Below, in pieces: positions 1,042-63,521 of a stretch of 64,000 nt of DNA. A model generated the notes under the pieces. It did not search any database. It saw only the letters and a list, made by a program, of their open reading frames with translations, and was not told the origin of the DNA. Both the position numbers and the translations under genes were made by a program. Numbering within the stretch: the stretch's first letter is position 1; the number at the start of each line of letters is the position of its first letter. The DNA is from Verrucomicrobiota bacterium (GTDB lineage Bacteria; Chlamydiota; Chlamydiia; Chlamydiales; SM23-39): positions 323 to 64,322 of the forward strand of contig JAGWZL010000005.1 of NCBI GenBank assembly GCA_018968815.1, written 5' to 3'.

Positions 1042-1130
1042 GGATGCAGCAAATGTTAGCCGTTATTCACAATTTGTTTCAACTTTCCCCGCCAAATGCC
1101 CTGTGGCATCATTTGTATATATGAAAATCT

Positions 1131-2429: not shown

Positions 2430-3484
2430 TGCAATTTCGAGAGAAAATTTTCGACAAAGAAGTCGTTGGTAAAAACTTTTGCCTTCTCGCTATGGATGAA
2501 TGCATCTGCTGCGTCCAAGTAGGTTTGGTACTCTTCTGGGCTCATCTTTTTCATGAACTGATAGAGCTCCTCGTAGCTCGCAAATTGTCTGCGGTCAATG
2601 AAGCATTCTGCGGGAATATAATCGGTCACATTGCTGGCGCCTAAATAGATGGGGACAACTCCAGTTGCAAAACAATCGAAGATTTTCTCCGAAATATATC
2701 CTTTCACATCCTTGGTATTTTCGTAACAGATGGAAAATTTATACCCTTTCAACGTTTCCCATTTGTCTGGAACAGACCCGCGGTAATTTTTGTATTTCTT
2801 TTTCCACCCATATCCGTACAGATCAAATTCCCCTGCAGGTTTTCCTTCAAAAAATTGGATCGCTCTCTTCCTCTCTGAATAGAGTTCTTTGGGATGTTTG
2901 CTGGTGAGCCGTCTACAGATCATGGTGCAAAATTTCTTCTCTTCAAATGGAGGGAGGTTTGCGATTCTTGGGTTCAGCGCCGGATAGTGCAGTTTGAAAA
3001 ACTTTTGGTTGTCCACCAAATCGTCATCCCAAGTGAAAATTGTGTCAAACAGAGCGTGTGTTTTCGGATCATACAGCTCCGGTTGCACAGCCGGAGGCTC
3101 CCACATCACCAGAACCAATTTTTCTTTCGGGACTTTGGCTAAATTGCAGTCCTGCATCAAGGGACCTAAATTCCAAAATACCCAGTATCGAGTATCGGGC
3201 GCCACGATTTCGCCTTTAGGCAGGCCAATCCCCAACCAGTGCTTGAAATCTTGCCAAGTTTTCACGCCATGCCAGTTCAATAACAACGGTCTGTATTGAT
3301 CGATCTCCCAACTGCGAATATCATCGCCTCGCGAAACGAGCTGCCGGCGGATCAAAGTAGGCAAAGCGGGATGTTCGCCCTCGAGAGGGAACATGTTTTG
3401 CCCTTTCGCATCACAGGCATAATCACAATACAATTCGATCTCAGAGGCATGAAGAAAACCGAATAACAGCAGAAGAAAAAGCAT
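2363..3484 (-). CDS. Glycosyltransferase family 10 (alpha-1,3/4-fucosyltransferase-like), N-terminal membrane anchor
   Basis: ...KFSICYENTKDVKGYISEKIFDCFATGVVPIYLGA... matches the FxxxFENSxxxxYVTEK...IPIYWG signature of bacterial and eukaryotic FucTs. I chose the start at the internal Met (MLFLLLLFGFLH, 3484). The ORF opens at 3559, which would overlap the dnaE start. Confidence 0.75.
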   Translation of the reverse strand: MLFLLLLFGFLHASEIELYCDYACDAKGQNMFPLEGEHPALPTLIRRQLVSRGDDIRSWEIDQYRPLLLNWHGVKTWQDFKHWLGIGLPKGEIVAPDTRYWVFWNLGPLMQDCNLAKVPKEKLVLVMWEPPAVQPELYDPKTHALFDTIFTWDDDLVDNQKFFKLHYPALNPRIANLPPFEEKKFCTMICRRLTSKHPKELYSERKRAIQFFEGKPAGEFDLYGYGWKKKYKNYRGSVPDKWETLKGYKFSICYENTKDVKGYISEKIFDCFATGVVPIYLGASNVTDYIPAECFIDRRQFASYEELYQFMKKMSPEEYQTYLDAADAFIHSEKAKVFTNDFFVENFLSKLHYGTGEVSEKLMMPPPGEESGQ

Positions 3485-3546
3485 GATAAAAGGGTATTGC
3501 AAATTGGGCTTAACGTCAATTCCCAACGCTTGTATACTTCCAAAAT

Positions 3547-6500
3547 ATGATGATCCCACTCAACGTTCACTCTCAATATTCGATTCTCAATTCGACAGCC
3601 TCTGTAGCGATGCTTGCAAACAAAGCCAAAGAATATGGCCTTCCCGCGCTGGCTCTCACCGATGAGGGGAACTTGTATGGAGCCATTGACTTCTATAAAG
3701 CGTGTAAAGCGGTCGGCGTCAAACCCATTTTGGGCTGCGAAATCTGGATGGCGCCGCAATCGAGACTCGATAAAAAAAGAACGCCCGGATTGCCCAACGG
3801 TTTGCCGCTCATTCTCCTCGCGAAAAACGGGACAGGCTATCAAAATCTTTGTAAACTCTCTTCGATCGGATTTTTAGAAGGATTTTATTATCAGCCGCGC
3901 ATCGATAAAGAGGTATTATGCCAGCATAAAGAGGGACTCATTTGCCTCTCCAGAGATGTTCAAGAGGCCCGATATTACCAAGAGCTCTTTGGCGAAGATT
4001 TTTATTTAGAAATCCAGCGCCACCCACTCCTCGATGAAGAGATTCAAGAGAGCTGGCTTTTGCAAAAGTTTCGCGACTGTGCAGCCGAGCAAGCGAAAAA
4101 AAATGAAGAGATCATCGCCCTATCCAAACAACTAGGAGTGGCTCTCGTTGCCACCAACGATATCCATTACATCGACAAAGAAGATTGGCGCGCGCATGAG
4201 GTTTTGCTCAACATTCAGTCGGGCGAAGTGTGCGAGATTTGGGAGCGCGACTCGGCCGGCAACCCCAAAAATAAGGCGCCCAATCCAAGACGCGAAACGG
4301 CCTCTACGCGAGAGCTCTATTTCAAATCGCCTCAGGCGATGCAGGCGCTCTTCGCCGATTTGCCCGAAGCCTTGGAAAATACGCTGAAAATCGGCGAAAA
4401 ATGCAAGTGCGAACTCGATTTCAAAACCAGGCACTATCCGGTTTTTATTCCCCCCCATTTACACGGAAAAAAAGTGTCGAAAACAGAGCGGCTGAAAGAA
4501 GCGGAGCAGTTCCTTTACGACCTTTGCCAAAAAGGGATTGAAACGCGCTATACGCCGGACAGATTGGCCCATATTCCGGGAGATCAGCCGCTTGAAATGG
4601 TCAAAAAACGGTTTGCCTATGAATTTGAGATCCTCACCTCGAAAGGGATGGTCGACTACATGCTCATCGTATACGATTTCATCGACTGGGCGAAGCGGCG
4701 CAATATTCCCATGGGTCCTGGGAGGGGTTCTGCGGCCGGGTCGATTATTTCCTATTTGATTGGCATCACCGACATTGAGCCGCTGCGGTTCCATTTGTTC
4801 TTTGAGCGGTTCATCAATCCCGAAAGGATCTCCTATCCAGATATCGACGTCGACATTTGCATGGATCGCCGGCAAGAGGTGATCGATTATGTGGTGGAAA
4901 AGTATGGCAAAGATCGGGTCGCGCAGATCATCACCTTCGGCACGATGAAAGCCAAAATGGCGATTCGAGATGTGGGCAGAGTGCTCAATGTGCCCCTGTC
5001 TAAAGTGAATGAGATCGCCGCTTTAGTGCCGGAAGATCCGACCATGACGCTAGACAAGGCGTTTCAGATCGATCCAGAGTTGAAACGGCTCATGGAGACC
5101 GATGAAGAGGCGCGCGCTGTCCTCGAGATGGCGCAAAAGGCGGAAGGGTCGATCCGCAACACGAGCACCCATGCGGCAGGCTTGATTATTTCCGCTAGTC
5201 CCATTACAGATCATATTCCTGTTTGTACAGCGAAAGATTCGGAGATGTGGGTCACGCAATTTGCGATGAAGCCAGTGGAGAGCGTGGGGATGCTCAAAAT
5301 CGACTTTTTGGGGCTTAAAACTCTCACCTCGATCCAAAAATGTATCGATGCGATTGCGCGCAATACGGGACGCAAAATCGACTGGATCAATTTACCGCTC
5401 GATGATCAAAAGACGTTTGATTTGCTCAACCAAGGCAAGACGCTAGGCGTATTCCAGCTCGAGTCTGGAGGGATGCAGGACTTGGCGCAGCAGCTGCACA
5501 TCGATACTTTTGAAGAGATCATCGCGGTGGGCGCTCTCTACCGCCCAGGTCCGATGGATATGATCCCTTCTTTCATCAACCGGAAGCATGGACGGGAAGC
5601 GATCGAGATCGATCACCCGCAGATGCTAGATATTTTGTCAGAGACTTATGGCGTGATGGTCTATCAAGAGCAGGTCATGCAGATCGCAAGCGCGCTGGCT
5701 GGCTATTCGCTGGGCGAAGGCGATGTGCTCAGACGGGCGATGGGGAAAAAAGATAAAGAAGAAATGACTCGCCAGAGAGAAAAATTTGTGGATGGGTGCT
5801 CTGTCAAAGGGATCGATCGCGATACGGCCATCAAGATTTTTGACAAAATCGAAAAATTTGCGTCTTACGGATTCAATAAATCGCACGCGGCAGCCTATGC
5901 CTACCTCTCCTACACCACAGCCTACTTGAAAGCGAACTATCCTAAAGAATGGATGGCCGCTCTCATGACTTGCGACCAACACGACATCACCAAGTTGGCG
6001 AAATTCATTGGCGAAGCGAAATCGCTGCATATCGATGTGCTCCCTCCCGATATCAACCAGGCGTCCGGTGAATTTAGCGCCTCCCAAGAGGGGATCCGTT
6101 TTGCCATGGCAGGCATTAAAGGCGTGGGCGGTGGAGTGGTCGAAGCGATTCTCGAGGAGAGGACGCGGCAAGGGCCGTTTTCCAGTTTGTACGATTTTGT
6201 GCAAAGAGTCGACAAAACGAGGGTCGGCAAAAAGCAAATCGAATTGCTCATCGAAGCGGGGGCGTTTGATTTTACCTCTTGGTCGCGCGATGCGATGCGG
6301 GAGAGCGTGGAGGAGATGTACGAGAATGCATCTCGCGATCAGAAAGAGGCGTCCCTCGGCGTGCTCAACCTCTTTTCTCTCATTGAAGAGCCCGAAAAAC
6401 CGTTTGCCAAGCCGCCGCCCGTGATCCACGCATCATCGAAAATGCACGTATACCAGAGAGAAAAGGAGCTGCTCGGCTTTTACCTGACGGGCCATCCGAT

Positions 6501-49246: not shown

Positions 49247-50359
49247 ATGGGCCCAATCAAAATCGCTTTTCTCTGCTGTCTGCTCTGTGTCGCGTGCAGC
49301 CAGAAAAAACCGGCAGAGCAGCCCCCTGTGCCGGTCACCGCAATCCGGGTCAGCCCACAGACCCTGCCCGCCAACTTCCAATACGTAGGCGTCGGCAAAA
49401 GCTCCCACATCGTGCAAATGAGAGCCCGCGTTGAGGGGTATTTGGAATCAATCGACTACGTGGAAGGCGCCCTCGTCCACACGGGCGAGTTGATGTTCAT
49501 CCTCGATCAGAGGCCGTTCGTCGCCGTTCTGGAAGAAGCCCAAGGCGAACTCTTGCGACAACAAGCCATCCTGTGGAATGCGGAACAAACTAAAAACCGA
49601 ATGGTCCCGCTCTATAAAGAAAACGCAGTGAGCCAAAAAGACATGGATGACGCCCTGGCCAGCGAGTGGGCGGCCCAAGCAGCGGTCGCCATCGCCAAGG
49701 CCAATGTCGAAAAAGCCGAAGTCAATTTGAGCTACACCACCATCCAGGCCCCCGTGACCGGCATGGCCAGCAACGCAAAATTTAGAGAGGGCGCGCTCAT
49801 CTCCCCAGGCCCCGATAATTTGCTCACAGAAATCTATGTGATCGACCCCATCTGGGTCTATTTCAGCGTCTCCAGCGGCGATATCTTAAAGGCGCGCGGC
49901 GAAGCGGCCCAAGGACTCGTCCAATTGCCCCCAGATAACCGCTTCGACATCGAGGTCGAATTCGCAGATGGATCGGTCTTGCCCGCAGAAGGAAAAATCG
50001 ACTTCACCTCGCCCTCCTTGCAACAAAGCACAGGCACCATGTTGGTGCGCACCGTATTGCCCAATCCAAAAGGCTATCTCAAACCAGGCGAATTCGTGAG
50101 CGTGATTGTGAAAGGCGCCGTCAGGCCCAATGCCATCGCTGTCCCACAACAGGCCGTCATGCAAGGCATGAACGGCACCTTCGTCTGGGTCATCAACGAA
50201 AAAAGCGAAGCCCAAATGCGCCCCGTTGTAGCGGGCGATTGGTACAAAGATGATTGGATCATCAACTCCGGTTTGAAACCAGGCGATATCGTCATCACCC
50301 AAGGAGTTAATAAAGTCCAAAATAACACCCCCGTTACGGTTAAAAACTGGGTCCCATGA
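49247..50359 (+). CDS. RND efflux periplasmic adaptor (membrane fusion protein, AcrA/MexA-like) lipoprotein
   Basis: The lipobox is ...CLLCVA|CSQ. Coiled-coil and beta-barrel adaptor blocks are present. It overlaps the pump gene by 4 nt. Confidence 0.9.
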
Positions 50360-53300
50360 TCTCAAGATTTTTTATCGACCACCCTATTTTCGCAGCCGTG
50401 TTATCCATCGTGATCACCTTCGCCGGCGTCACCGCCATCAAAAATCTCCCCGTGGAACAATACCCCAACATCACCCCCCCACTCATTCAGGTGACCGCCA
50501 CCTATAACGGAGCCAACGCCGACACAATGGCTAACGACGTCGCATCGCCCCTGGAACAGCAAATCCTCGGCGTCGAAAACATGATCTACATGTACTCCCA
50601 AAACTCCTCCACCGGCAATATGACCCTCGACGTCTATTTCAACATCGGCAGCGACGCCAACATGGACCAGGTCAACGTACTCAATTTGGTCAACCAAGCC
50701 ATGGCCGAACTCCCCAGCGAAGTCCAAGAAGAGGGAGTCACCATCCAAAAACAAACCCCCAACATCTTGATGATCGTCGCTTTGCAATCCCCACAAGGCA
50801 TTTATGACTCCATTTTCACAAGCAACTACGCCAGCATCAACGTCGTCAACGAACTCGATCTGCTGCCAGGCATCAGCACCATCTCAATCATCGGACAGCG
50901 CGACTACTCCATGCGCATCTGGCTCAGGCCCGACATGATGGCTGAATTGGGCATCACCACCAATGACATCGTCAAGGCCGTCCAACAGCAAAATGCCGAC
51001 TTCGGCATCGGACAAATGGGCCAGGCCCCCAATGCAAGGCCCGTTGCGTTGACCATTCCCATGAGCACACAGGGCCGGTTGAGCACACCCGAACAGTTCG
51101 AAAACATTATCTTGAGAGCCGATCTGAACGGCCAAATGGTCCTCTTAAAAGACGTCGCTAAAGTCGATCTCGGCGCCCAAGATTATACAGTCGATGGCGA
51201 ACTCGACGCTGTTCCCACCACACTGCTTGCCATTTACCAAGAATATGGAGCCAACGCACTGCAGGTCGCTGGAGCGGTGCGCAAAACCATGGAGCGCATC
51301 TCAAAAAATTTCCCCGGAGGACTCACTTATACCATCCCCTATGACACCACTTTGTTCATCAAAGGCTCCATTAAAGAGGTCTTTCTCACCCTCCTGGAAG
51401 CGGCAGGCCTCGTCGTGCTGGTCGTGTTCCTCTTCTTGCAAACGTTCCGCGCCACCCTCATTCCTGTGCTCGCGATGATCGTCTCCATCGTCGGCGCTTT
51501 TGCAGGGTTATATATACTCGGCTTCTCCATCAATACATTGACTTTGTTTGGCATGGTGCTCGCCATCGGCATCGTGGTCGATGACGCCATCGTCGTCGTC
51601 GAAAACGTCGAACGCAATTTGCGCACGTTTAAACTCTCGCCCAAAGACGCCGCCCGCAAAGCCATGGACGAAGTCACCAACCCCGTGATCGCAATCGTCT
51701 TCGTCCTCTGCTCAGTCTTCATCCCCGTCGCCTTCCTTGGCGGCATCGCAGGCCAGCTCTATAAACAATTCGCCATCACCATCGCCGTCTCCGTGTTCAT
51801 CTCCGGCTTCGTCGCCCTCACCCTCAGCCCCTCCATCGCAGCGCTCGTGCTCAAACCCCAAGAAAAAGAGTCTAAGTGGGCCATGTGGTTCAATCAGGGT
51901 CTCGCAAAAGTGACCGATGGGTATAGCAAAATCGCCTCTTGGCTGATCCATCGCACGGTGCTCGGCCTCGCCATTTTTGCAGCCATCTTGGCCGCGCTGT
52001 TTTTCTTCTTTAAAATGACGCCGACGAGCTTTGTCCCCAATGAGGACCAGGGCTATCTGATTGTCTTTGCCAACATGCCCGACGCGGCGAGCCTCGACCG
52101 GACAAAAAGGGCCGACGATCAGATCGAAGCCATCGCCATAAAACACCCAGGCGTAGAGCATGTCGTCTCTTTGACCGGATTTAGCATCGTAGAGAGTCTG
52201 AACCGGACAACGATTGGCACGAATTTTATCATTCTGAAAGATTGGAAAGAGCGAAAAGCCAAAAACTTGCACGCTGCGGCGATTTTGCAAGATCTGCAAA
52301 AAGAGTTCTTTGAAATCCAAGATGCACACGTCATTGTGACCAATCCCCCAGCGATTCAGGGGCTAGGCACGGTGGGCGGATTCGAGTTCTGGATTGAAAA
52401 CCGAGGCGATGGAGGCATGCCCGCCCTCGAACAAGCGGTCGCACATTTTCTCAGCAATGCCAAAAAGCGGCCCGAACTCTCCAATCTGTACACAACGGCC
52501 CAATTCAATAACATGCAGTTCTACGTCAATCTCGATCGGTATAAGGCGATGGCGCTCGGCGTATCGATTTCCGATGTGTTCCAAGCGCTGCAAACGCTTC
52601 TCGGCTCCGTCTATGTCAACAATTTCAACAAATTCGGCAGAGTCTATCAGGTGATTGTGCAGGCGCAGCCAGAATATCGGGAACGGCTCGACAATCTCGG
52701 CGACATGTATGTCCGCTCCTCTTTCAATGAAATGGTGCCGCTCAAATCGCTCATCTCCATTTCAACGACCAAAGGACCCAATTTGGTGAGCCGCTTCAAC
52801 GATTTCCCAGCCGCAGAAATCATCGGCTCTCCAGCTCCCGGATACTCGTCAGGCCAAGCGATCCAAGCCATGGAGGAGCTCGCCCAAAATCTCGGCCCCA
52901 ATATGAATTACGGTTGGAGCGGCGAAGTCTATCAAGAGATTGCCACCGGCGGCACCTCGTTCGTCGTGCTCCTCGCGGGACTGTTCATGGTGTTTCTCAT
53001 CCTCTCCGCACTCTATGAGCGCTGGTCGCTGCCGCTTGCCATCATCATGGCGGTGCCTTTCGGCGCGCTCGGCGCCTTTATCGCCATTTGGCTGCGCCAT
53101 ATGCCCAATGACGTCTACTTCCAAATCGGACTGGTCACCCTGATCGCCCTCTCTGCAAAAAACGCGATTTTAATCGTCGAATTCGCGCTGATGCAGAAAA
53201 AACAGGGGCTCTCCAATGTCGATGCCGCCATCGCCGCCGCTAAATTGCGCTTTCGCGCCATCATCATGACCTCGCTCACCTTCATTTTGGGAGTGACCCC

Positions 53301-53451
53301 GCTTGTGACTAGCCAAGGAGCCGGAGCCGCCAGCCGCCACTCTGTAGGAACCGGCGTCATGGGAGGCATGATCGCGGCCACCTTTTTGGCGATTTTCTTC
53401 GTCCCTCTTTTCTTCAAACTCTTAGCAGGGAAGAAGGATGAGACACCTTAA
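50356..53451 (+). CDS. RND multidrug efflux transporter (AcrB/MexB-type, HAE1)
   Basis: 1031 aa starting [20 protein letters not shown]..., with a 12-TM architecture and two large periplasmic loops. ...[17 protein letters not shown]... is present. Confidence 0.95.
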
Positions 53452-54850
53452 TGTGATTCTCCTGTTTCTCGTTTCTTGCACGCTCTATCCAAAATATGTT
53501 CGCGAAGTGGAATTTGCAATGCCCTCCGACTGGCGCATCGAGTTCTGCGAGATGAACGAGCTCGGCAATGTCAATTGGTGGCGCAATTTGGGCGATCCAG
53601 TCCTCGATGGATACATTCAAGAGGCGCTGGGAGCGAATCAAGATCTGCAAGTGGCCATCGCCACAGTCGACGCCTTCGCCGCCCAATTAGGCGTGGTCCG
53701 CTCGCAGCTTTTTCCTCAAATCAGCGGCTCAGGAAGCGCGGGAAGAGCCAAAGTGTCACAGACAACGGAACAATTGCTCCCCGGCGAGCCCGCCATCAAC
53801 AACGCCTATGATCTGGTGCTCAATGCCTCGTTCCAACTCGATATTTGGGGACAAATCCGGAGCGCTGTCGATGCGGCCAAAGCGCAATTATATGCCTCCA
53901 TCGAGACGCGTAGAACCGTTGTATTGACCCTCATCAGTTCGGTCGCATCCACATATGTGTTGATGCGGCAATTCGATGAGCAGCTCCGCATTGCCAAAGA
54001 GACCAAAGCCGCCAGAGACGAATCGTACCGGTTGGCCGTGATCCGCTTCGAATTGGGACTCACCTCCATGCTGCCCGTCGATCAGGCCAAATCGGAAGTC
54101 GAAGACGCGCAAACGACGATCGATCAAATCGCCATCCAAGTAGCCCTCACAGAAGACCTCCTCTGCTTTTTAATGGGCAAAGCCCCTATGACCCCCGAGC
54201 GAGGCAAATTGCTCGGAGAAATCTATATGCCCCCCTGCGTGCCCGCCTACTTGCCCTCCGAGCTCCTGAATCAGCGCCCCGATATCTTGGCCGCTGAACA
54301 ACAGCTCATCGCAGCCAACGCGCAAATCGGAGTGGCAAGAGCCGCCTTCTTCCCCAACTTTTCACTCACCGGACAATATGGAGCCGAAGGAACAACATGG
54401 CACAATCTGTTCACAAAGCCATCGAGCATTTGGGAATATGGAATCAACCTTTTACAGGAAATTTTCACGGGCGGTGAACTCACCAACCAGCTGAGATTCA
54501 CCGAAGCGCAGCAGCGAGAAGCTCTCCATCAGTATCAATCGACCATCCTGAATGCGTTCAAAGAGGTGAACGATAGTTTGATTTCACACAGAATCTCACT
54601 CGATTTGGAAAGAGATCAAAAAATTAAAGTCGATACACTCAAAGACTATTTGCGCCTCTCCTGGCTACGCTATCAAAATGGACTCGTCGATTATTTGACA
54701 TTTCTCGATGCGGAAAGACAATTTTTTAGGGCAGAGCTCGCTTACACGGAAGCGCAGGCGCAAAGCTTCACCACACTCATCGATCTCTATAAAGCGCTCG
54801 GAGGCGGCTGGGTCGTCGCCGCCGATTGCTCTTTGGAGCTACCTGAATAA
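53438..54850 (+). CDS. Outer-membrane efflux factor lipoprotein (NodT/OprM family)
   Basis: The lipobox is ...LFLVS|CTLYP. ...[12 protein letters not shown]..., ...[11 protein letters not shown]... and a C-terminal ...LYKALGGGW are present. Confidence 0.9.
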
Positions 54851-54875: not shown

Positions 54876-55940
54876 ATGAAAATCTTTTTTCTTCTCTTCT
54901 TTGCTGCCGCGTTTGCATGCACCGACTTTGTCGTGCAGGCCAAAGATGGCGCTCTGATCAATGGACGCTCTCTTGAATTCGGCAAAGATCTACAATCGAT
55001 CATCCGCCTCTTTCCAAGAGGACAAAAGACAATCAGTCAGGCCCCCGGACAAACACCCGGCCTCGGTTGGATCTCTAAATATGGATATCTCGGCGTCACC
55101 TGCCTCGGACTTTCTCTCTCCTTCGATGGCATCAATGAAACAGGCCTCTCCTTCGGCTATTTGTGGCTGCCCGGCGTCACCGAATACCCAACTGTGCAAG
55201 ACTCTAAAAAAGCCCTCGACTTCACAGACTTCTGCGCTTGGGTTCTCGGTAATTTCGCCACCGTCGCTGAAGTCAAAGAGGCCCTTCAAAATGTCTCGAT
55301 TTGGGGCCACGCCGTTCCTTCCCTCGGAATTCCCCCCGTACACGCCGCTATCCACGATGCCAAAGGCAATCACCTCGTCGTCGAATTCGTCCAAGGCAAA
55401 ATGCAAGTGTACGACAACCCCATCAGCATCTTGACCAATTCCCCACCCTTTGATTGGCAAATCACCAATTTGCAAAATACACTCAACTTCAGCCCCTATA
55501 ACCCCAATTCCGTGGCGTTTCGAGGAGTCTCCCTGTCCCCGCCCGGACAAGGAGGGGGCCTTTGGGGCTTGCCAGGCGATTTTAGCCCACCCTCCCGCTT
55601 TGTCAAAATAGCCACCCTCTTGCGCCTCGCTTTGCAACCCAATCACCACTCCGATGCAGTCAATTTGGCTGAACACCTCCTCAATAGCGTCGATATCCCA
55701 TTGGGGACTGTGCGAGACCCAGGCCAAGATACAGGCGACTTCACGCAATGGGTCATCATTAAAGACTTAACCAATCGAGCGCTCTACTTCCGCTCTTACG
55801 GAGATTTAACCCTGAAAAAAATCGATCTGAAAAAATTGAACTTCACAAAAGAAAATAAAAATAGCCTCCCCCTAGACCTAAGAAGAGGCTTTGTCGATGT
55901 CACAGACTCATTGTCAATCAAGAACCGACAAATCGATTGA
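54876..55940 (+). CDS. Ntn-hydrolase, choloylglycine hydrolase / penicillin V acylase family (linear amide C-N hydrolase)
   Basis: The signal peptide ends ...FAAAFA|CTDFVV, exposing the nucleophile Cys. ...NGRSLEF... is present. The size is about 335 aa. Confidence 0.8.
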   Translation: MKIFFLLFFAAAFACTDFVVQAKDGALINGRSLEFGKDLQSIIRLFPRGQKTISQAPGQTPGLGWISKYGYLGVTCLGLSLSFDGINETGLSFGYLWLPGVTEYPTVQDSKKALDFTDFCAWVLGNFATVAEVKEALQNVSIWGHAVPSLGIPPVHAAIHDAKGNHLVVEFVQGKMQVYDNPISILTNSPPFDWQITNLQNTLNFSPYNPNSVAFRGVSLSPPGQGGGLWGLPGDFSPPSRFVKIATLLRLALQPNHHSDAVNLAEHLLNSVDIPLGTVRDPGQDTGDFTQWVIIKDLTNRALYFRSYGDLTLKKIDLKKLNFTKENKNSLPLDLRRGFVDVTDSLSIKNRQID

Positions 55941-55978: not shown

Positions 55979-56332
55979 TTATGCATTAATTTCGGATTCT
56001 GCAACCACAACCGGTTTCGGCAATCTCATGCGCGTCGCCGGAAATTTCAACTCGCTCGCCAACATCGAAAGCTCTTGTAATTTGGAAAGAACCTGATCTA
56101 AAAAACCATCCTGTTTCCAAATCTTATACCATCGATGCGATGCCGATTTCGAAGCAAACTCCCCACTCTTCGGCAGCGCTTCCCACTTCGACTTCGTACA
56201 AAGAATATATAAAATCGAATTCAATACCTTTCGCCACGGCGTATGCGGCTTCCCTCGCCCTCGTTTCATCGGCTTCGGGAAAAGCGGCTCTAATACCTGC
56301 CATTGTAAGTCTGTTAATTCTTTGTAACTCAT
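55979..56332 (-). mobile_element. IS5-family (IS427/IS1031-type) transposase N-terminal ORF only; remnant
   Basis: ...LTDLQWQVLEPLFPKP..GRGKPHTPWRKVLNSILYILCTKSKWEALP...HRWYKIWKQDGFLDQV... matches the DUF4096-type orfA. No DDE-domain ORF follows, and only 38 nt separate it from the neighbouring gene. Confidence 0.6.
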
Positions 56333-56350: not shown

Positions 56351-56644
56351 TTATGATTCATTATTAAATGATTCTTGGATTTCATCGATGATCGCCTGCT
56401 GCGCTTTCGTAGGCTCAAATTCTGTGGACGTTGTCCACCGGTCCGCTTGAGTCTCTAAAAATCGCTGCACCTCTTGAATCGAAACAAGCGCCTCTTTTCT
56501 CTTTTTCTGATCCTCAGATGCAAGCTGCACTCGCAATGCGCGAAAATATTGACGCGATTCATACAGGATTTTCCGAATCTGTTCCACATCCATCGTCGCA
56601 TCAGACGTGTTCTCTTTTAAGAAGTTTAAAAAGCTATTTTTCAT
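56351..56644 (-). CDS. Small helical hypothetical protein
   Basis: 97-aa ORF, charged and helical, with no signal peptide. An AT-rich 106-nt region lies upstream. Confidence 0.4.
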   Translation of the reverse strand: MKNSFLNFLKENTSDATMDVEQIRKILYESRQYFRALRVQLASEDQKKRKEALVSIQEVQRFLETQADRWTTSTEFEPTKAQQAIIDEIQESFNNES

Positions 56645-56750
56645 ATTAATAGTATATGTTCTTATACGTTAATTATATCCCATTTTGATTTAAATGTAAA
56701 TACAATTTTTTAGTAATACATTAGAGTGTAAGTGATTGATTTTCAGTATG

Positions 56751-57680
56751 TTAGTAGTTCTTTTGCCAGCAACAACGGAGCTGGAGGGGGATGATTTCAA
56801 AGCGTTCGATGGGTTGGTAGATTTGCCAGTTTCTGAGGCGGCAAGGGGGGTCTCGAGTGCGATGGGAGAGTTGATAGAGGGGGAAGGTGAGAGAAAGCGC
56901 TGCTTGTAACACGACTCCGAAGAGATCGTCGTAGCGGTAGCTCAAATCGAGGGCTAAATAATCCCGAAATTGGGGTTTGATTCTCGCTTCGAAGCCAAAG
57001 GTATTGCAGCAGCATCTGGACAGGAAATAGGGGCCGCAAGCGGCGTAGAGAGAAAACTGAGGGGCGTTGATGAGGAAGTAGCCCCCTTCTGCATTCATGC
57101 TATAAGAGACCGATTCGATATTTTTGCGCAGGAGAAAGTAGTTGTTGGTATAGCTGTTAAAGAGGCATGTACGAATATGTTGGGTTTGACCCCAAGGGAG
57201 ATAAGCGTTGGCTCGAAAATCCCATTTCGAACCCAACAGTTCAAACCCGATGCCAAACTGACGATAATGTCCGATGCATCCTTCGCGGGTATCATAGAAT
57301 GCATTCACACCGATCATTTGGCAAAAACTGGCTTTGGCATCGGGGACGTATCGGCCTCCAATGCCCACGTTAGCGGCATAGAGATCTTGAATGAATCGGT
57401 GGCCGATGAGATCGAGGAAAGGAAACATGCGGCCTGGGCGATAATCGGGAGAAACGAACAGTTCTACGGTTGTGTAGTTGGTGATGGGGGCCAGGCACTT
57501 TTCATCTTGATGACCCCAAGCATGGCGAATGGCGATTCGCTTGGTCCATAGGTGGGATGGCGGCTGTGGGGCTATTGCCGCGGGAGCAGGCTTTTGAACC
57601 TGAGTTTTGGCTTCAGCTGTTGCGCACATCAAATAGAGGGCCAAAACAGCGCATAGATACGTTTTGCTTCGATCTTGCAT
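56751..57680 (-). CDS. Cysteine-rich outer-membrane beta-barrel candidate (inverse-autotransporter-barrel-like, no passenger)
   Basis: The signal peptide is ...LMCATAEA|K. Alternating beta-strand pattern; 13 Cys in total including 2 in the signal peptide, with CCC and CC runs. ...ANVGIGGRYVP...IGVNAFYD...FGIGFELLGSKWDFRANAYLPWG... recalls the intimin/invasin beta-domain. Confidence 0.45.
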   Translation of the reverse strand: MQDRSKTYLCAVLALYLMCATAEAKTQVQKPAPAAIAPQPPSHLWTKRIAIRHAWGHQDEKCLAPITNYTTVELFVSPDYRPGRMFPFLDLIGHRFIQDLYAANVGIGGRYVPDAKASFCQMIGVNAFYDTREGCIGHYRQFGIGFELLGSKWDFRANAYLPWGQTQHIRTCLFNSYTNNYFLLRKNIESVSYSMNAEGGYFLINAPQFSLYAACGPYFLSRCCCNTFGFEARIKPQFRDYLALDLSYRYDDLFGVVLQAALSLTFPLYQLSHRTRDPPCRLRNWQIYQPIERFEIIPLQLRCCWQKNY

Positions 57681-57722
57681 ATCGCCATTAAAACAAAATC
57701 TTCAAGGAGATGGCTAGTTTTT

Positions 57723-58706
57723 TTATTTGAGCCTAAAAGCGGTGAGATATACCCACGGGTCCGTTCCGTTGCTTGCATATGATGTGGAGCCGCTGGCCGC
57801 TTCTTGATACACACTGATTGTATCCATCGCGTTCAAAGTAACGAGCGTTGTGAAGCTATACATCATTTTTGATGTGCTTGCACCGGAAGGATTGTAAAAA
57901 GTATAAAGAGTGGCTGAAACAGCGCCAGCAGCGCCATTGATGCGAAGACTAAACAGAGTATTTAGACCTGATCCTGATATGGAGGCTCCAAACGTCACTT
58001 GATAAGTGCCGGCATGGGTCACTTGCAGCCCCGAAGTGGAAGCTGAGACAGAACCGCTGCTCGCCGGATTTAAAGTGACGGTATTGCCACCGCCGAGATT
58101 AAAGAGATTGGTCGCCCCGACCGCGGTACCCCCAGGTCCAACGACATAAGCCATTCCAAAATCGCCGATGGTTCCCGCAGGCCCCGTCGCCCCTGTAGCG
58201 CCCGTTGGCCCCGTCGGACCTGTTGGCCCGGTCGCCCCTGTAGGGCCTGTTGGCCCGGTCGCACCTGCAGGGCCCGTTGGCCCGGTCGCACCTGCAGGGC
58301 CCGTTGGCCCGGTCGCACCTGCGGGGCCTGTTGGTCCGGTCGCACCTGCGGGGCCTGTTGGTCCCGTTGCACCTGCAGGGCCGGTTGGACCGGTCGCACC
58401 TGCAGGGCCTGTTGGACCCGTCGCACCTGCAGGGCCCGTTGGACCCGTCGCACCTGCGGGGCCTGTTGGTCCGGTCGGACCTCCTACTGGGCCGGTGGAA
58501 CCGGTCGGACCTGTTGGACCTGTGTTGCCTGAGCTTGCTGGGCCTGTTGGGCCTGTGGGACCCTCAGGACCGGGAGGGCCTTGCGCAGGAGTTTTGCCGC
58601 ATCCGCCGCAACCTCCTTTGGCTAACAGGAAAGATTTGGGCACAGAGAGAAAAGAAACGGAGGCTAGGAAGAGAAGGCAGAAAAGCAGTCGGTGATGCAT
58701 TTTCAC
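57723..58706 (-). CDS. Collagen-like (Gly-X-Y) repeat protein with BclA/C1q-like C-terminal globular domain
   Basis: It has a signal peptide and a GGCGGCG motif, followed by ~150 aa of GPT/GPAGAT triplets. The C-terminal ~140 aa are ...[18 protein letters not shown]...SLRINGAAG...[13 protein letters not shown]...VYLTAFRLK. The RBS taggagga lies upstream. Confidence 0.85.
58230..58472 (-). repeat. 27-bp tandem repeat x9 (encodes GPAGATGPT nonapeptides)
   Basis: Consecutive units of ggtcgcacctgcagggcccgttggccc and close variants begin at 58230, 58257, 58284, 58311, 58338, 58365, 58392, 58419 and 58446. Confidence 0.95.
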
Positions 58707-58715
58707 TTTTTCCTC

Positions 58716-60281
58716 CTACGGAAACGACGCAGTGGCACTGGCGCTTTGCATGAGATTGAAATCGAAAGCTGTCACTGTATAGGTGACGGAGCCATTTTGC
58801 ACCGTATTATGCTCAACATACGTCAATGTGCTTGCAGCGACGGTTCCAATGAGTTCGTCATTTCGGAAAATGGCGTATCCGATCACACTGGCATCAGAGC
58901 TTGCGCTCCAAGTGAGGGTATTATAATAATCGGTGAAGACCCCATAACTGGTCGAGGTTTGCTGGACTGAGAGGCTTGTGGGAGGAGCAAGAGTTGAGCG
59001 GGAACCCACAGAGGCTTGCAAGACATTGTATCCAGAATTCGAATCGATCCAAGAACACGCAGCATAGAGGTGATTGGTCGCGTAGGTGGAGGCGATGCGC
59101 GGCGCGGTGTTATTCGAGCTGGAGGAAATCGTCGTTGCTTGCGTCCAAAACAGATTGGGCAGGATCCCGTTGATCGTGGCTTCCGCGCCTTGGATCAGAA
59201 CATGGGTTCCATCGAACTGCATATAGGCAACCACTGCATCGTTTAAACTATTGAGAGAAGCGTCTACCCCAAAGCTATAATTCGATTGTGTGAGGGAGAT
59301 TCCAGGAGTGGTCCAATTTTGCCCTAAACTTTTGAACGCAGTCTCGACAACAAAGCTCGAATCGTCGTAGCTGATGCTCCAAATGGCAAGGGCATTCCCA
59401 AAAGAATCGTGAACGACGCGCGCTGTGAAATTGGCGGGATTGCCGATGCCGACATCGGACAGATAGGTGGGAGTAGTAGACCAAGCGGTCGCACCGTTTG
59501 GCAGCGAAGAGGAGTTAATGACAACAGCAATATCATCACTCCCATTCACTTGATAGCGATACCAAATGGCCTCTGCATTTCCATTGAGATCGACTGAAAC
59601 GCTGGGATAATTGTGCACATAGGCAGGAGAAGCGCTCACAAGAGACACCGCTGTATTCCAAGAACCGCTGACTGTCGCTGTAGTCGCCATGATCACATCG
59701 CCCGATCCGCCGCTCGTATGCCAAATGGCGCATACAGTTCCATTCGCGCCTATAGCGACTGCCGGATGATCTGAGCTGCTTGCGGAAAGAGTGTTGACAG
59801 ATCCCCACGAGTCCCCGCTGAGTTTTGTAGCCGATTCAACCACTCCATTTCTCACCCAAACAGCGACCATATCGCCATTGGAGCGTACTGCAATGCTCGG
59901 ACTTTGAATGGTGCCTGATGAAGAAAGCGTGGTTGCGCCGCTCCAGCTGCCCCCTGAATAAGTGCTCGCTTGCACCACACTCCCTGTGGACCAGACGGCG
60001 GTGACTTTGCCGCTCGAATCGACGCCTGCAGAGGGACCCGATGCTCCCGAGCCAGACAAGGTTGTGGCGCCGCTCCAGCTCCCATTCAACGGGCACACTT
60101 GCGCTTTGACCACACCTGCTTCCACATATACAACGGTCGCGTTGCCGCTGGAGTCCATGACGATTCTATGATCGGTGACATTCGCAGAGGCTGAAGAGAG
60201 TGTCGTTGGAGTATTCCAGCTGATTGTAGCATGCAACTGCATCAGAATGAAAAGAGAGAAAATCAGCTGCTTCATATCCAC
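58716..60281 (-). CDS. Secreted protein with eight ~45-aa beta-rich repeats and FN3-like C-terminal domain
   Basis: Signal peptide followed by repeats of the pattern (S/N)W(s/n)xxxxLS...(v/i)A.d..Gna.a(v/i)W. The C-terminus ...PPTSLSVQQ...YNTLTWSAS...GYAIFRNDELIGTV...YTVTAFD is FN3-like. Confidence 0.65.
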   Translation of the reverse strand: MDMKQLIFSLFILMQLHATISWNTPTTLSSASANVTDHRIVMDSSGNATVVYVEAGVVKAQVCPLNGSWSGATTLSGSGASGPSAGVDSSGKVTAVWSTGSVVQASTYSGGSWSGATTLSSSGTIQSPSIAVRSNGDMVAVWVRNGVVESATKLSGDSWGSVNTLSASSSDHPAVAIGANGTVCAIWHTSGGSGDVIMATTATVSGSWNTAVSLVSASPAYVHNYPSVSVDLNGNAEAIWYRYQVNGSDDIAVVINSSSLPNGATAWSTTPTYLSDVGIGNPANFTARVVHDSFGNALAIWSISYDDSSFVVETAFKSLGQNWTTPGISLTQSNYSFGVDASLNSLNDAVVAYMQFDGTHVLIQGAEATINGILPNLFWTQATTISSSSNNTAPRIASTYATNHLYAACSWIDSNSGYNVLQASVGSRSTLAPPTSLSVQQTSTSYGVFTDYYNTLTWSASSDASVIGYAIFRNDELIGTVAASTLTYVEHNTVQNGSVTYTVTAFDFNLMQSASATASFP

Positions 60282-60352
60282 CTTCCTTGGCTTATAAGGA
60301 TAAGGGGGAAATCTTAAAGAAGTCCGATTTTTGTGTAAATCTTTTTTATAAC

Positions 60353-61756
60353 CTAGGTTGAAATGGTGTTTTGCCGAGCGTCTCTGATGAGATCGCGCAG
60401 CTCTGCCTGGAATGTGGGCGATGGAGTTTGCAGGCCGAACGAGTAGAGATCGTCGACGTAATTTGGATCGTTGCGGTATTTCCAGTTGTTCACCACAAAT
60501 TCTTCCATCGAGGCTTTCGACATTCTCTTGGTGCCAGAACTCTTGCAGCGATTGAGATATTCCAGATCGCTATGGAAATAGAGCGAACCGGTTTGATCCG
60601 CTTGTGATTTGAGGTCATTCGCGTCAGGCACTGGTTGGAGCCAGTTCAGGCTCGGAGTTTTCCACTTCTCATCGCTAATATTGCGCGTCTTTTTGAAAAT
60701 GCTCATGCGCGCGTTGGTGACTGCTTGCGCTTTTTCGCTTAAGAGCTGATCGGTGATCTGATCTGTATCTTCCCAGAACGCAACGGCGGTGTAGGTGGCC
60801 AGAAGATCCATCTCCGCCAACTGTTTTTTGATTTTTTCTAAGACTTCGATTTCTTTTTTCCAATCTTGGGTGGAGTCGCTCTGTTTCTCTGCAATTTTTG
60901 CCTCGATTTTTTCTTTCATTGCCTGAACGAAGCTGCTCGTTTTGCGGATCTTGCCTTCGGCCTCCCCTCGAAGTTCAGGGGGGAGCTCTTCGGTGAGATC
61001 TTTGAAATGATTGGTGCGCATCAGACTGTCGTTGAAAAATTCCTCATCCGTTTTCGGGATATACCGTTCCCAGTGATCATTTTTCAGTTTAAAAGGAACC
61101 TCTCCGTGGATGGGGCGGTTGGAATCAAAATCAAGACGAGTATGCCAGCTCTGCAGACCGAGGAGCTCCATCGCTTTGTCGTGCGTCTGATCCCAAACAT
61201 GTAAAAACTCCAAAATCTCTTTGACCTCTTCAGGGAGATTGTCTTTCAGGATCGCCTCCGTTTTCCCGTTTTCCAAAAAGCGGAGTGTGTCGTCAGAAAA
61301 ATCCATCTGGAAGTGCGAGGCATTCGGATGCTGTTTTTTGATAATCTCTTCAATCTTCTTCTTGAAATCATCATGCCCGAATTTCGGGATGTGATTGACG
61401 GAAATCACTTGGTTGCCAATTCCTACCTCAATGTCCTTCGCTTTGACGGTCCGGTCCCATTTGCGAATGATCTTGAGTCCAAGCTCCCAAACTTTCTTGG
61501 TCGCTTCTTGCCACTCCTGGTCTTTCTGTCCAACACGCGACTTGATGCGTCTCCCGTTCACTGTCGCATATACCTGCAGCGAATTGGGGAGCTCTTTATC
61601 CTCGTCAGCGGTCAATACGGCGTGAGGCACGATGGTGCGCCTCAGTTCGGCCCACGTCTGACCTTGACTCGGAGTCGCCTGAATCGCGACACAATTGTCC
61701 TGGATCCGGGCAGGGGTTGCTGCCAAGGCAAGCTCTGCTGGTTGTCTAATCGTCAT
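60353..61756 (-). CDS. Hypothetical 467-aa protein, no signal peptide, central coiled coil
   Basis: The ORF is long, well supported, and has ordinary composition. ...KIRKTSSFVQAMKEKIEAKIAEKQSDSTQDWKKEIEVLEKIKKQLAEMDL... is present. I recognised no catalytic motif. Confidence 0.6.
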   Translation of the reverse strand: MTIRQPAELALAATPARIQDNCVAIQATPSQGQTWAELRRTIVPHAVLTADEDKELPNSLQVYATVNGRRIKSRVGQKDQEWQEATKKVWELGLKIIRKWDRTVKAKDIEVGIGNQVISVNHIPKFGHDDFKKKIEEIIKKQHPNASHFQMDFSDDTLRFLENGKTEAILKDNLPEEVKEILEFLHVWDQTHDKAMELLGLQSWHTRLDFDSNRPIHGEVPFKLKNDHWERYIPKTDEEFFNDSLMRTNHFKDLTEELPPELRGEAEGKIRKTSSFVQAMKEKIEAKIAEKQSDSTQDWKKEIEVLEKIKKQLAEMDLLATYTAVAFWEDTDQITDQLLSEKAQAVTNARMSIFKKTRNISDEKWKTPSLNWLQPVPDANDLKSQADQTGSLYFHSDLEYLNRCKSSGTKRMSKASMEEFVVNNWKYRNDPNYVDDLYSFGLQTPSPTFQAELRDLIRDARQNTIST

Positions 61757-61916
61757 AAATGATTTCCAATTTATATCTAATTATACCATTTTCCTGGACC
61801 TTTTTCAATAAAACACTATTAATAGGATATATTTAAAAAGTATAAACAATTACTTTAATCTCAATTAATTTATACATGTTAAAGTAGATGAAAAGGTGAA
61901 ATAGGGTACTTACAAG
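61757..61916. promoter_or_regulatory. AT-rich divergent intergenic (shared promoter region candidate)
   Basis: A 160-nt stretch much more AT-rich than its surroundings lies between divergent ORF starts at 61756 and 61917. I did not assign a specific -35/-10. Confidence 0.3.
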
Positions 61917-62255
61917 ATGAATATCAGAGAAATCATTCGCAAAGCCAGGCAGATCGCCAAGACGCCCGACGAGGTCTTGTTATCTGAGCGGTTTGAAGAG
62001 TATTTGGATCTTTTGGACATGCGTACCCAAGTCACTCAGTCAGAACAGGATGAGTTAAACTTAAGAATCGAGAGGTCGTTACAGGCCTTGAGAGAGGTGT
62101 CTCGGAGAGTGGCTCAATTGCATGGCATGGATCCGTCCGTATTTACGCAGTTTGCAGATGTCCCGAATATTGGGATGGGGACTGGATCGAATCCCGCTCA
62201 CGGTCCAATGCCGATGAAAACAAAGAAACAGAAAAAAGAAAGGGTAAGGGTATAA
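61917..62255 (+). CDS. Small hypothetical protein, helical N-terminus, basic C-terminal tail
   Basis: 112 aa ending ...KTKKQKKERVRV. It is the first gene of a coupled operon. Confidence 0.5.
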   Translation: MNIREIIRKARQIAKTPDEVLLSERFEEYLDLLDMRTQVTQSEQDELNLRIERSLQALREVSRRVAQLHGMDPSVFTQFADVPNIGMGTGSNPAHGPMPMKTKKQKKERVRV

Positions 62256-62259
62256 GCTT

Positions 62260-63102
62260 ATGAGTACTAGTTTCCAGCAAATGTATGAAAAGTGGGTTGA
62301 AGATAATGCGGCCTTTTTAGCGCAAGCCCAGGAAGTGCAAAATGGCGTTGCGCAGATCTATGGCAACGGCTCTCCGAGCAACCCGGGGGATTTGGCGGCT
62401 TTCAAGGCCAAATTGGATAAGATGGATGTCAGCGCAAGTTATGCGTTGATGCTTCTCTTTTATATTTTGGGAGCATCGAGTCAAAATTCCACCCTTTTGG
62501 GATATTATACGGATAAGAGTGGACTGACAGGCGAGCGACTGAAATTAAACGGCCTTTTGACCAAGGTGGACAACGATCTCAATAATATGGCGCAGTCCAA
62601 TAGCTCACACTCATCTGACATGGTGCTGTTCTGTCAGGCTACGGACACTGTTTTAAACGAGTTGAACGGCGGCGATCCGAACTTGAATCCGAATGCAGCC
62701 TATCCTTCGATGGACCCGGAGGCGCAATTATCCGTGTACAACCAACTGCTTCAAATCCGACAATTGTTCTATTTGGGTAATGACGCCCCGTACGATCCAA
62801 CTGGAGACTCCTATTATTTTGCGCCCAATGGAACAGGGACGAAGCATATCAATACATTTCAGGAGTTCGAAGAACTTTTGAAACAGCAGGGGGACCCACA
62901 AGGCGCGAGCTCTGCGGCGAAGGCCTTAACCGACGATTTTGGCATCAACACGCAGACCACGCAAACAGCGAGTGCGGTGTTGAATAACGACCAAAAGACC
63001 TATACCAGTATGGAGCAGGCGACTCAGTCCTTCATTGCTGCGATTGCGCAGTGGTGGAATACGCTGGCAAAACAAGCAAACAGCCATATGACGAGCTCGT
63101 AA
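62260..63102 (+). CDS. Hypothetical Ala/Gln/Asn/Ser/Thr-rich protein with one hydrophobic segment
   Basis: 280 aa starting 4 nt after the upstream stop. The hydrophobic segment is ASYALMLLFYILGASS. Confidence 0.55.
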   Translation: MSTSFQQMYEKWVEDNAAFLAQAQEVQNGVAQIYGNGSPSNPGDLAAFKAKLDKMDVSASYALMLLFYILGASSQNSTLLGYYTDKSGLTGERLKLNGLLTKVDNDLNNMAQSNSSHSSDMVLFCQATDTVLNELNGGDPNLNPNAAYPSMDPEAQLSVYNQLLQIRQLFYLGNDAPYDPTGDSYYFAPNGTGTKHINTFQEFEELLKQQGDPQGASSAAKALTDDFGINTQTTQTASAVLNNDQKTYTSMEQATQSFIAAIAQWWNTLAKQANSHMTSS

Positions 63103-63104
63103 CC

Positions 63105-63521
63105 ATGGGAATTTGTTTAGCGTCTGTATATGAAGGGATTGCGGAGCAGGTCGATGCAAATAATAGCGTGACGATCTCGCTGGCCTATTTTGCGATCAAC
63201 TATGTGCCGATTTATTTGGCCAAGAGAACGGCTGGATTGAATGCCATTGAGTACGACGTGCAGCAATATTTGTTGGCTGCGCTGGATTATCAGGATCCAC
63301 ACGCGTCGGCTGAAGAGGCTGAATGGAACGAGCAAAAGAACATTGATACGAGCAAAATGGATACCGGGACAAGCGCCATCAATGCTTTGATTGAAAACGT
63401 GAAGAGCGAAGCTCAGGCCAATGAGGTGGATTTGCAAAATGCGATCGCCTCACAAGATCCGATTAACAATTTATTAAAAAGTGTTTTGCATTTGCTTGCA
63501 AAAATAGGTGGTGGGTCATGA
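63105..63521 (+). CDS. Hypothetical protein with one hydrophobic segment
   Basis: I chose the start at MGICLASVYEGIAEQV, 2 nt after the upstream stop; the ORF opens at 63051. The hydrophobic segment is ISLAYFAINYVPIYLA. Confidence 0.5.
   Translation: MGICLASVYEGIAEQVDANNSVTISLAYFAINYVPIYLAKRTAGLNAIEYDVQQYLLAALDYQDPHASAEEAEWNEQKNIDTSKMDTGTSAINALIENVKSEAQANEVDLQNAIASQDPINNLLKSVLHLLAKIGGGS

Follow-up and report, generated by a model that had tools for sequence, protein, structure and literature searches.

A candidate gene module for a BclA-like collagen surface fibre in an environmental chlamydia

Introduction

The chlamydial surface has so far been viewed as composed of MOMP, Omc and Pmp proteins together with type III needles, and disulfide cross-linking of the envelope is established in the Chlamydiaceae. 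In giant viruses, glycosylation genes are associated with fibrils. The best described relatives of the system reported here are collagen-like fibres of Bacillus and inverse autotransporters. BclA stalks are O-glycosylated; F-BclA is the tip fibrillum of the F-type endospore appendages of Bacillus thuringiensis, its C-terminal head being PDB entry 9H38; and the collagen-like L-BclA is coupled to the endospore appendage fibre via an N-terminal Cys-rich connector (PMC12357932). Among the inverse autotransporters, Heinz et al. (2016) delineated a clade with very short C-terminal extensions and noted members in Chlamydiae; one such short-extension barrel, ZirT, exports the co-encoded proteins ZirS and ZirU (PMC4943183). 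Here we analyse a stretch of 64,000 nucleotides (nt) from contig JAGWZL010000005.1 of a bacterium placed in the Chlamydiota (hereafter the window), in which three adjacent genes at 60281-56751 (-) encode a secreted eight-repeat protein of 521 amino acids (aa), a collagen-like protein of 327 aa and a barrel protein of 309 aa. On balance we favour the view, from sequence and structure models, that these genes constitute a module with which an environmental chlamydia makes a BclA-like collagen fibre on its surface. A first-pass annotation of the same DNA had proposed a split adhesin of this kind, and as a whole that interpretation is partly supported.

Organization of the three genes

Gene 1 (521-aa secreted protein; 58716-60281, (-)), gene 2 (327-aa BclA-like collagen protein; 57723-58706, (-)) and gene 3 (309-aa barrel-only inverse autotransporter, type Ve; 56751-57680, (-)) are followed in the list of open reading frames (ORFs) by a fourth ORF of 97 aa (56351-56644, (-)). 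All four same-strand ORFs of the first-pass annotation were found at these coordinates, and the junctions it gave, 9 nt between genes 1 and 2 and 42 nt between genes 2 and 3, are present. Ahead of the collagen gene, the sequence TAGGAGGA shares bases with the stop codon of gene 1. The true start of the 521-aa gene is probably the ATG at 60275, and that of the collagen gene is possibly the ATG at 58700. A scan of the junctions gave no terminator-like site in any of them. A weak sigma-70-like promoter candidate (9/12 match) lies upstream of gene 1 at 60311-60339 (-), and the site in the region that most resembles a promoter, TTTACA-17-TATAAT (11/12), lies at 56700-56672 in the AT-rich 106-nt gap before the 97-aa ORF; the promoter scan overall was not above its shuffled expectation, and single sites are candidates only. 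The 97-aa ORF probably has its own promoter.

The collagen-like protein

The 327-aa protein matches Pfam Collagen (PF01391) with an E-value of 2.7e-17. Its N-terminal part (58581-58706, (-)) consists of a signal peptide and a Cys motif conserved in its relatives, after which GPPG follows. The GGCGGCG cysteine motif reported for it earlier is present, and the class of the pre-collagen Cys motif, LLAK..(D)CGK[PT]P[KA]Q-GPPG, recurs in P0109 and nine other full-length chlamydial collagen-head proteins; every complete collagen-head protein starts with a signal peptide and a motif of this type. The conserved Cys sits five residues ahead of the collagen helix, where the window protein has two Cys, and in relatives it is surrounded by charged neighbours. 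A lipoprotein reading of the GGCGGCG motif was rejected, the residue before the conserved Cys (D, H, G or K) being unfit for a lipobox.

The collagen-like stalk spans aa 43-181 (58164-58580, (-)). It had been described as ~150 aa of Gly-X-Y built from GPT and GPAGAT; the composition holds, and the length is ~137 residues instead. It contains ~45 GXY triplets with 46 Gly, 32 Pro and 32 Thr, is rich in GPT and GPAGAT, and is encoded by a DNA tandem repeat with a period of 27 nt in 9.8 copies (58219-58482). For a collagen of 701 residues a length of 196 nm is given (PMC12357932); at 0.28-0.29 nm per residue the stalk would be ~39 nm long if it is triple-helical. Among family members the stalk ranges from eight triplets (P0109, L009) to more than 180-260 (L036 and L018 9012-16238 (+)), so that fibre lengths may extend from a few nm to over 200 nm, which suggests rapid adaptive variation of this trait. 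Runs of N interrupt the collagen-repeat genes in several assemblies of metagenome-assembled genomes (MAGs; L002, L005, L032, L047 and L048), and gene callers split such broken genes or misframe them (also in L012), so that the chlamydial collagen-like family is under-represented in protein databases.

The C-terminal head (aa 182-327; 57726-58163, (-)) is predicted by its AlphaFold2 (AF2) model, Foldseek matches and a family profile to be a jelly-roll of the BclA_C/C1q/TNF-like type. Searches of the PDB with the head model (pLDDT 69, pTM 0.71) returned BxpB at a template-modelling (TM) score of 0.68 and BclA at 0.64/0.70, along with TNF and C1q domains; against EDA, 4-1BBL, Eiger, C1QL1, C1QTNF5 and C1qA the Foldseek probability was 1.00 with TM scores of 0.54-0.69. 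Word-indexed searches found no homologue of the head, and exhaustive phmmer searches found seven among 1.84 billion representatives. One of these, P0109, has the same signal peptide and Cys motif, just eight triplets and a head 47% identical to that of the window protein, and two others, P0112 and P0114, are the heads of long GPT-rich collagen genes. The family became visible only through six-frame scanning of neighbouring loci, partly since runs of N break the collagen genes of MAGs. The scan of chlamydial loci yielded 19 distinct collagen-like proteins with a C-terminal head, whose consensus reads DFAxxYLPG…GFYQVTFG…AAYVTIVKLQ. A profile of these 19 heads matches the crystal structure of the F-BclA head (9H38) with an E-value of 2.2e-9 and several BclA entries at ~7e-6, and nine of the 19 match Pfam BclA_C individually, the best at 1.5e-7. 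The earlier proposal of a C1q/TNF/BclA-like head thus stands at the superfamily level, with a jelly-roll model and family-profile homology to BclA heads.

The structural matches of the head in viral libraries include collagen-like proteins of Terrestrivirus, Hokovirus, Sylvanvirus and Marseillevirus as well as phage tail fibres (TM 0.6-0.73), and they raise the alternative that the collagen-head gene is a horizontally acquired fibre gene of a prophage or giant virus with incidental neighbours. This resemblance is at the level of the C1q/TNF superfamily only. The three proteins and their neighbours match no PHROG family, no sequence relative was found in IMG/VR contigs, and neither flanking repeats nor phage genes were detected; a Sec signal peptide, a family-specific N-terminal motif and a chromosomal context conserved in many Chlamydiota likewise argue against a viral remnant, which was already disfavoured and which we regard as highly improbable.

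The inverse-autotransporter barrel

The 309-aa protein matches IAT_beta (PF11924) at 37.4 bits against a gathering cut-off of 22.3, 47 of its 48 homologues also have this domain, and the profile of the barrel family matches invasin (4E1T) with an E-value of 5e-8. Its AF2 model (pLDDT 89.4) has the invasin/intimin beta-domains 4E1T and 4E1S as top Foldseek matches (E 7e-9 and 1e-8; TM normalized to the target 0.69-0.70). These Pfam, profile, model and structure-search results bear out the earlier claim of an intimin/invasin-like barrel without a passenger, and the product of gene 3 is accordingly classed, from sequence and model, as a predicted outer-membrane barrel of the intimin/invasin type and the 12-strand class. 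A signal peptide ending in …ATAEA|K precedes ~20 Pro-rich residues and then the barrel. No Pfam match to LysM or any other N-terminal periplasmic domain was obtained between signal peptide and barrel, a region that varies among relatives, and no Chlam_OMP-type Pfam match was obtained in the protein.

A C-terminal passenger, whether of Big/Ig repeats or a lectin, is absent; just ~42 residues follow the barrel, forming a linker and tail (aa 268-309; 56754-56879, (-)) conserved in the family alignment. The consensus of the tail is PCGLTDRQIYQPIERFEVMPLGxRxCWxxNF, and all barrel relatives end with it. By analogy with intimin and invasin, we infer that the tail crosses the pore and ends outside. 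The protein does contain 13 Cys, two of them within the signal peptide, as counted earlier. Five Cys positions are conserved in the family, namely C120 (86%), C172 (83%), C223 (57%), C280 (86%) and C304 (90%), the last two being in the tail.

The short extension brings to mind two-partner secretion with release, in which the barrel would export the 521-aa protein, and possibly the collagen protein, to the medium, the inclusion lumen or the host, and no attached fibre would exist. Such a pattern has been described for ZirT, ZirS and ZirU and proposed for other short inverse autotransporters (PMC4943183), and the barrel fold itself is confirmed here. Yet the substrates of the ZirTSU system are encoded downstream and share immunoglobulin-superfamily domains with the ZirT extension, whereas the partners here lie upstream and the barrel has no Ig domain. 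BclA-type collagen proteins, where known, are attached fibres, and the conserved Cys before the helix suggests tethering (cf. PMC12357932). We hold release of the partners to be quite unlikely.

The eight-repeat secreted protein

The 521-aa protein has a signal peptide, eight tandem repeats (aa 22-426; 59004-60218, (-)) and an FN3-like C-terminal domain. The repeats, of the form W-x5-LS...D-x2-GN-x2-A-x-W, were delimited with an iterated profile hidden Markov model of the family repeat, each with an i-E-value of 1e-8 to 1e-17, and the same profile finds eight repeats in 27 of 33 family members. The number of repeats given in the first-pass annotation is thus right, and its length of ~45 aa applies to the first four, the last four measuring ~50-56 aa. 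Matches of the family to beta-propellers (Sec13/WD40, SBBP and BNR_4) are weak, and the repeats probably form an eight-bladed beta-propeller. The FN3/Ig-like domain (aa ~432-521; 58719-58988, (-)), also anticipated earlier, is backed by weak matches alone, to Ig_RIMBP2 (0.02) and to the FN3-type domains of YesW, ZmpA and NagJ (0.02-0.3). The N-terminal beta-sheet domain of RGI_lyase is matched by 12 of the 33 family members. The protein is likely an eight-bladed propeller with an FN3 domain.

Fifty-nine homologues were found, ~50 of them ~520 aa long and 34-51% identical, and one labelled Rhabdochlamydiaceae; none of the 59 has a Pfam domain. By sequence, we take the protein as the founding member here of a ~520-aa Chlamydiota family without a Pfam model.

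Recurrence of the three families in other Chlamydiota

The genomic context was surveyed from three independent starting points: 521-family proteins, the collagen head and the barrel profile. A look-up of the context of P0113 gave no result. The scan with the barrel profile, at one genome per species, gave 56 chlamydial loci, labelled Parachlamydiales, Rhabdochlamydiaceae, Simkaniaceae or Chlamydiales (some MAGs being mislabelled 'Verrucomicrobia'), and 23 loci of other phyla. Within 10 kb of the barrel, 10 of the 56 chlamydial loci have a collagen-head gene, eight a strong 521-family gene, six both of these, nine a GT92 gene and 29 at least one glycosyl- or methyltransferase gene of the island described below; each of these counts is 0/23 for the other phyla. 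A collagen-like ORF is present in all eight barrel-seeded loci that have a strong 521-family gene. At least ten other Chlamydiota MAGs have the three families close to one another, in differing orders: all three lie inside 10 kb in L002, L004/L027, L005, L032, L048 and L049, and L036, L037, L046 and L047 each combine a barrel ORF with 521-family and collagen-like ORFs. In the 521-seeded loci, tandem 521 paralogues stand beside GT90, GT92, GT11 and GT2-TPR genes, and a collagen-like gene lies less than 4 kb away in three of three.

The commonest layout comprises a collagen-head gene, a GT92 gene, one to three 521-family genes and a GT2-TPR gene with the barrel adjoining (L004/L027, L005, L002, L032, L036, L037, L048 and L049). 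The order of the window recurs in parts. In the head-seeded locus L009 the 3' end of a 521-family gene lies 15 nt upstream of the collagen gene, and in L054 the collagen gene is followed by the barrel gene, an adjacency also seen in L004/L027. Elsewhere the collagen gene precedes the 521-family gene (L010, L049), with a GT92 gene between them in L094. The gaps between 521-family and collagen genes are 9-30 nt. GT92 is encoded immediately 3' of 13 of 27 collagen-head genes in other loci, and an island of GT25, methyltransferase, GT2-TPR, GT11 and GT90 genes surrounds the barrels of relatives. These transferase genes (GT92, GT2-TPR, GT25 and methyltransferases) at other loci are the strongest clue that the context offers, one on which the first-pass annotation, made from the window alone, could not draw. 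The window copy is a minimal version of the module, without a glycosyltransferase.

The L046 locus contains a 657-aa ORF (1948-3921, (-)) in which a complete 521-family protein is fused in frame to 45 GXY triplets; it has no head domain and lies directly downstream of a GT92 gene. The fusion is either natural or the result of a deletion joining two neighbouring genes. Together with the co-localisation in other Chlamydiota, it gives independent support to the functional link among the three genes that had been claimed for the window. The GT92 proteins encoded beside collagen genes (L046 3934-4824 (-); L004, L003 and L094) have a hydrophobic N-terminal segment, e.g. MVPMELDFFKIRRVFFLFFFSMCFSCFA, resembling a signal peptide or a membrane anchor. 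Bacterial nucleotide-sugar transferases do not usually have such an N-terminus, which invites the question in which compartment the sugars are added.

The fourth reading frame and the chromosomal neighbourhood

The 97-aa ORF had been counted as the last gene of the same operon. It belongs instead to a conserved backbone, because its homologues sit with DUF4096 and CBAH genes at L013 and L014 without the trio; both loci keep the order of the homologues of the 97-aa, 117-aa DUF4096, CBAH, 467-aa and 280-aa proteins. Membership of the 97-aa ORF in the module was rejected, and it has no similarity to the small ORF after the barrel in L008, which encodes the closest barrel homologue. L013 and L014 hold the closest barrel relatives (54-55% identity), located on the other side of CBAH, and the slot of the trio is taken by a Ser/Thr kinase gene; its product (L013 12768-14264 (-); L014 12871-14298 (-)) is a Ser/Thr protein kinase fused to a PP2C/SpoIIE phosphatase domain.

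The 117-aa ORF (55979-56332, (-)) corresponds to just the N-terminal DUF4096 part of an IS5-type transposase. It is kept in the same position, by the 97-aa homologue and CBAH, in L013 and L014 (185-216 bits), and because of this conserved position it looks like a retained or domesticated fragment and not a recent insertion-sequence scar. The CBAH gene (54876-55940, (+)) encodes a member of the choloylglycine-hydrolase/penicillin-V-acylase family (E 4e-59) with a signal-like N-terminus. Its orthologue lies directly 3' of a barrel-only inverse-autotransporter gene in L008 (68% identity), L013, L014, L017 and L024, and CBAH is thus a second conserved neighbour of the barrel family. On the other side of the module, at 60353-63521, are ORFs of 467 aa (-) and of 112, 280 and 156 aa (+), none of which matches an entry of Pfam, NCBIfam or PHROG; the proteins of 467 and 280 aa belong to the conserved chlamydial gene set that flanks the module, in the same order in L013 and L014.

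The window as a whole is an ordinary bacterial chromosome encoding DnaE, SecY, RpoA, GAPDH and a resistance-nodulation-division (RND) pump, and no direct or inverted repeats were found flanking the trio, leaving no insertion signature. The RND efflux operon (49247-54850, (+)) encodes a membrane-fusion protein, a 1031-aa AcrB-like pump and a 470-aa outer-membrane factor, the start of the last gene overlapping the end of the pump gene. Two ORFs at 1-1062 (-) and 1125-2426 (+), 55 kb away from the module, resemble the GT90s encoded next to 521-family genes in L001 (E 5e-16 and 6e-19).

Proposed assembly of the fibre and alternatives

We propose that the collagen protein would trimerise via its head and stalk to give a fibre of ~40 nm. 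The Cys motif before the helix may staple the trimer and/or link the fibre covalently to a Cys-rich envelope partner, for which the Cys-rich connector of L-BclA provides a precedent of tethering; by analogy, the exposed Cys tail of the barrel would be the obvious candidate partner. Like the stalk of BclA, the Thr-rich stalk could be O-glycosylated, the only indirect sign of this being the GT92 genes 3' of collagen-head genes at other loci. The enzymes would be the GT92, GT2-TPR and GT25 proteins whose genes adjoin the module in relatives; in the window genome those glycosyltransferases would be encoded elsewhere or absent. The barrel may act as an outer-membrane anchor and/or a ZirT-like export pore, and the 521-aa propeller/FN3 protein as a dedicated extracytoplasmic partner, for instance an assembly factor, a base plate or a lectin. 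In an extended and clearly improbable form of this proposal, the barrel-only inverse autotransporter would export the glycosylated fibre and then hold it by a disulfide between its Cys tail and the collagen Cys motif, with the propeller/FN3 protein and the glycosyltransferases of signal- or anchor-like N-terminus serving as extracytoplasmic assembly factors. If true, the Chlamydiota would have their first collagen-type surface appendage, built by a new fibre-assembly system linked to type V secretion.

Several observations speak against a fibre module. The module is known from genes alone, and the relatives are MAGs throughout. A 12-strand barrel lets no folded trimer or propeller through. The confidence of the head model is moderate (pLDDT 69), and the window protein scores 20-22 bits against Pfam BclA_C (PF18573), under the gathering cut-off of 38. 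The alignment of the 521 family shows no conserved Cys, so this family is not a conserved disulfide partner. The window module has neither GT92 nor any other adjacent glycosyltransferase. A collagen-head gene within 10 kb is missing from 46 of the 56 chlamydial barrel loci, the short flanks available for the collagen-head genes of L092 and L093 contain neither a 521-family nor a barrel gene, and the gene order of the three families is not fixed. Because most barrel loci lack a collagen-head gene and some collagen-head genes lack a barrel, the barrel is not an obligate partner.

The last three of these observations are also those expected of a loose envelope and glycosylation island without any complex, in which a collagen adhesin would be exported otherwise, e.g. 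by the type II secretion route that Legionella Lcl takes, the barrel would be an independent Cys-rich outer-membrane protein, porin-like or part of a disulfide-linked outer-membrane complex, and the 521-aa protein would be an unrelated secreted protein. That barrel paralogues adjoin pyrimidine-synthesis genes or CBAH, and that relatives with the same backbone have the barrel on the other side of CBAH, fits such an island as well. Against it stand, however, the very tight link between 521-family and collagen genes (8/8 barrel-seeded and 3/3 521-seeded loci, short gaps and one in-frame fusion), the repeated adjacency of collagen and barrel genes in L054 and L004/L027, and the conservation of Cys in the tail of the barrel as well as directly ahead of the collagen helix. 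We consider a loose island rather unlikely. The association of the three families is real and recurrent, and not obligate for the barrel; a fibre module remains the reading that we favour.

Novelty and significance

Both kinds of component are known already, BclA/C1q-type collagen fibres on the one hand and short inverse autotransporters on the other; passenger-less inverse autotransporters are in the literature, also for Chlamydiae (PMC4943183), and the barrel alone is not new. What appears undescribed is the combination in a diderm intracellular phylum, the eight-repeat family, the N-terminal Cys motif and the GT92-centred gene set. Full-text literature searches, with incomplete coverage, found no description of collagen- or BclA-like proteins in Chlamydiae, Rhabdochlamydiaceae or Parachlamydia. 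The sequence relationships and the synteny are solidly supported, and the mechanism is a proposal, for a module seen so far only in uncultured lineages.

Two uncharacterised families, the 521-aa eight-repeat proteins and the chlamydial collagen-head proteins, are defined here with a testable shared context. If the proposal is true, the large and mostly uncultured environmental branch of the phylum would possess a new class of surface structure, a probably glycosylated BclA-type collagen fibre with which to attach to hosts or persist in the environment, and passenger-less inverse autotransporters would gain a concrete candidate cargo or partner.

Comparison with known systems

The chlamydial collagen protein resembles BclA, F-BclA and L-BclA (PDB 1WCK, 9H38) in having a GPT-rich stalk of variable length followed by a TNF/C1q-like BclA_C head and, in the chlamydial relatives, glycosyltransferase genes beside the collagen gene. 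It differs in that its host is diderm and of an obligate intracellular lineage, and in that it has a Sec signal peptide and no ExsFA/BxpB-binding exosporium leader; no ExsF-like gene lies near the collagen gene in the window. Its N-terminal motif, (D)CGKPPKQ-GPPG, and its neighbours, an inverse-autotransporter barrel, the eight-repeat propeller/FN3 family and GT92, also set it apart. With a Sec signal peptide and a motif of its own in place of the exosporium leader, it is not, strictly speaking, a member of the BclA family.

Legionella Lcl and Streptococcus Scl1/Scl2 are likewise secreted or located at the surface, and the number of repeats in their GXY stalk varies. Membership in these families (NCBIfam NF046116 and NF038329) was rejected, with scores of 60 bits against a threshold of 500 and 77 against 325 and a match confined to the collagen region; Scl carries its head at the N-terminus and is anchored through LPXTG, whereas the domain order and terminal domains of the chlamydial protein differ. 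Giant-virus and phage fibres share the collagen stalk with a C1q/TNF-like head, whereas the chlamydial gene is chromosomal, encodes a signal peptide and has no sequence relative in viral collections.

With MOMP, OmcA and OmcB the chlamydial barrel has in common that it is a Cys-rich outer-membrane protein, for which disulfide cross-linking is a plausible setting; there is no sequence relationship with these proteins, and the fold is that of an inverse-autotransporter barrel. With intimin, invasin and ZirT it shares the IAT_beta barrel, and with ZirT in particular the short extension and co-encoded proteins with signal peptides, one of them with a weak FN3-like end. In contrast to described inverse autotransporters, it has neither LysM nor a Big/Ig passenger and carries a conserved tail with two conserved Cys among five conserved Cys positions overall, and in contrast to ZirTSU its partners are collagen-like and propeller proteins encoded upstream, instead of Ig-domain paralogues encoded downstream.

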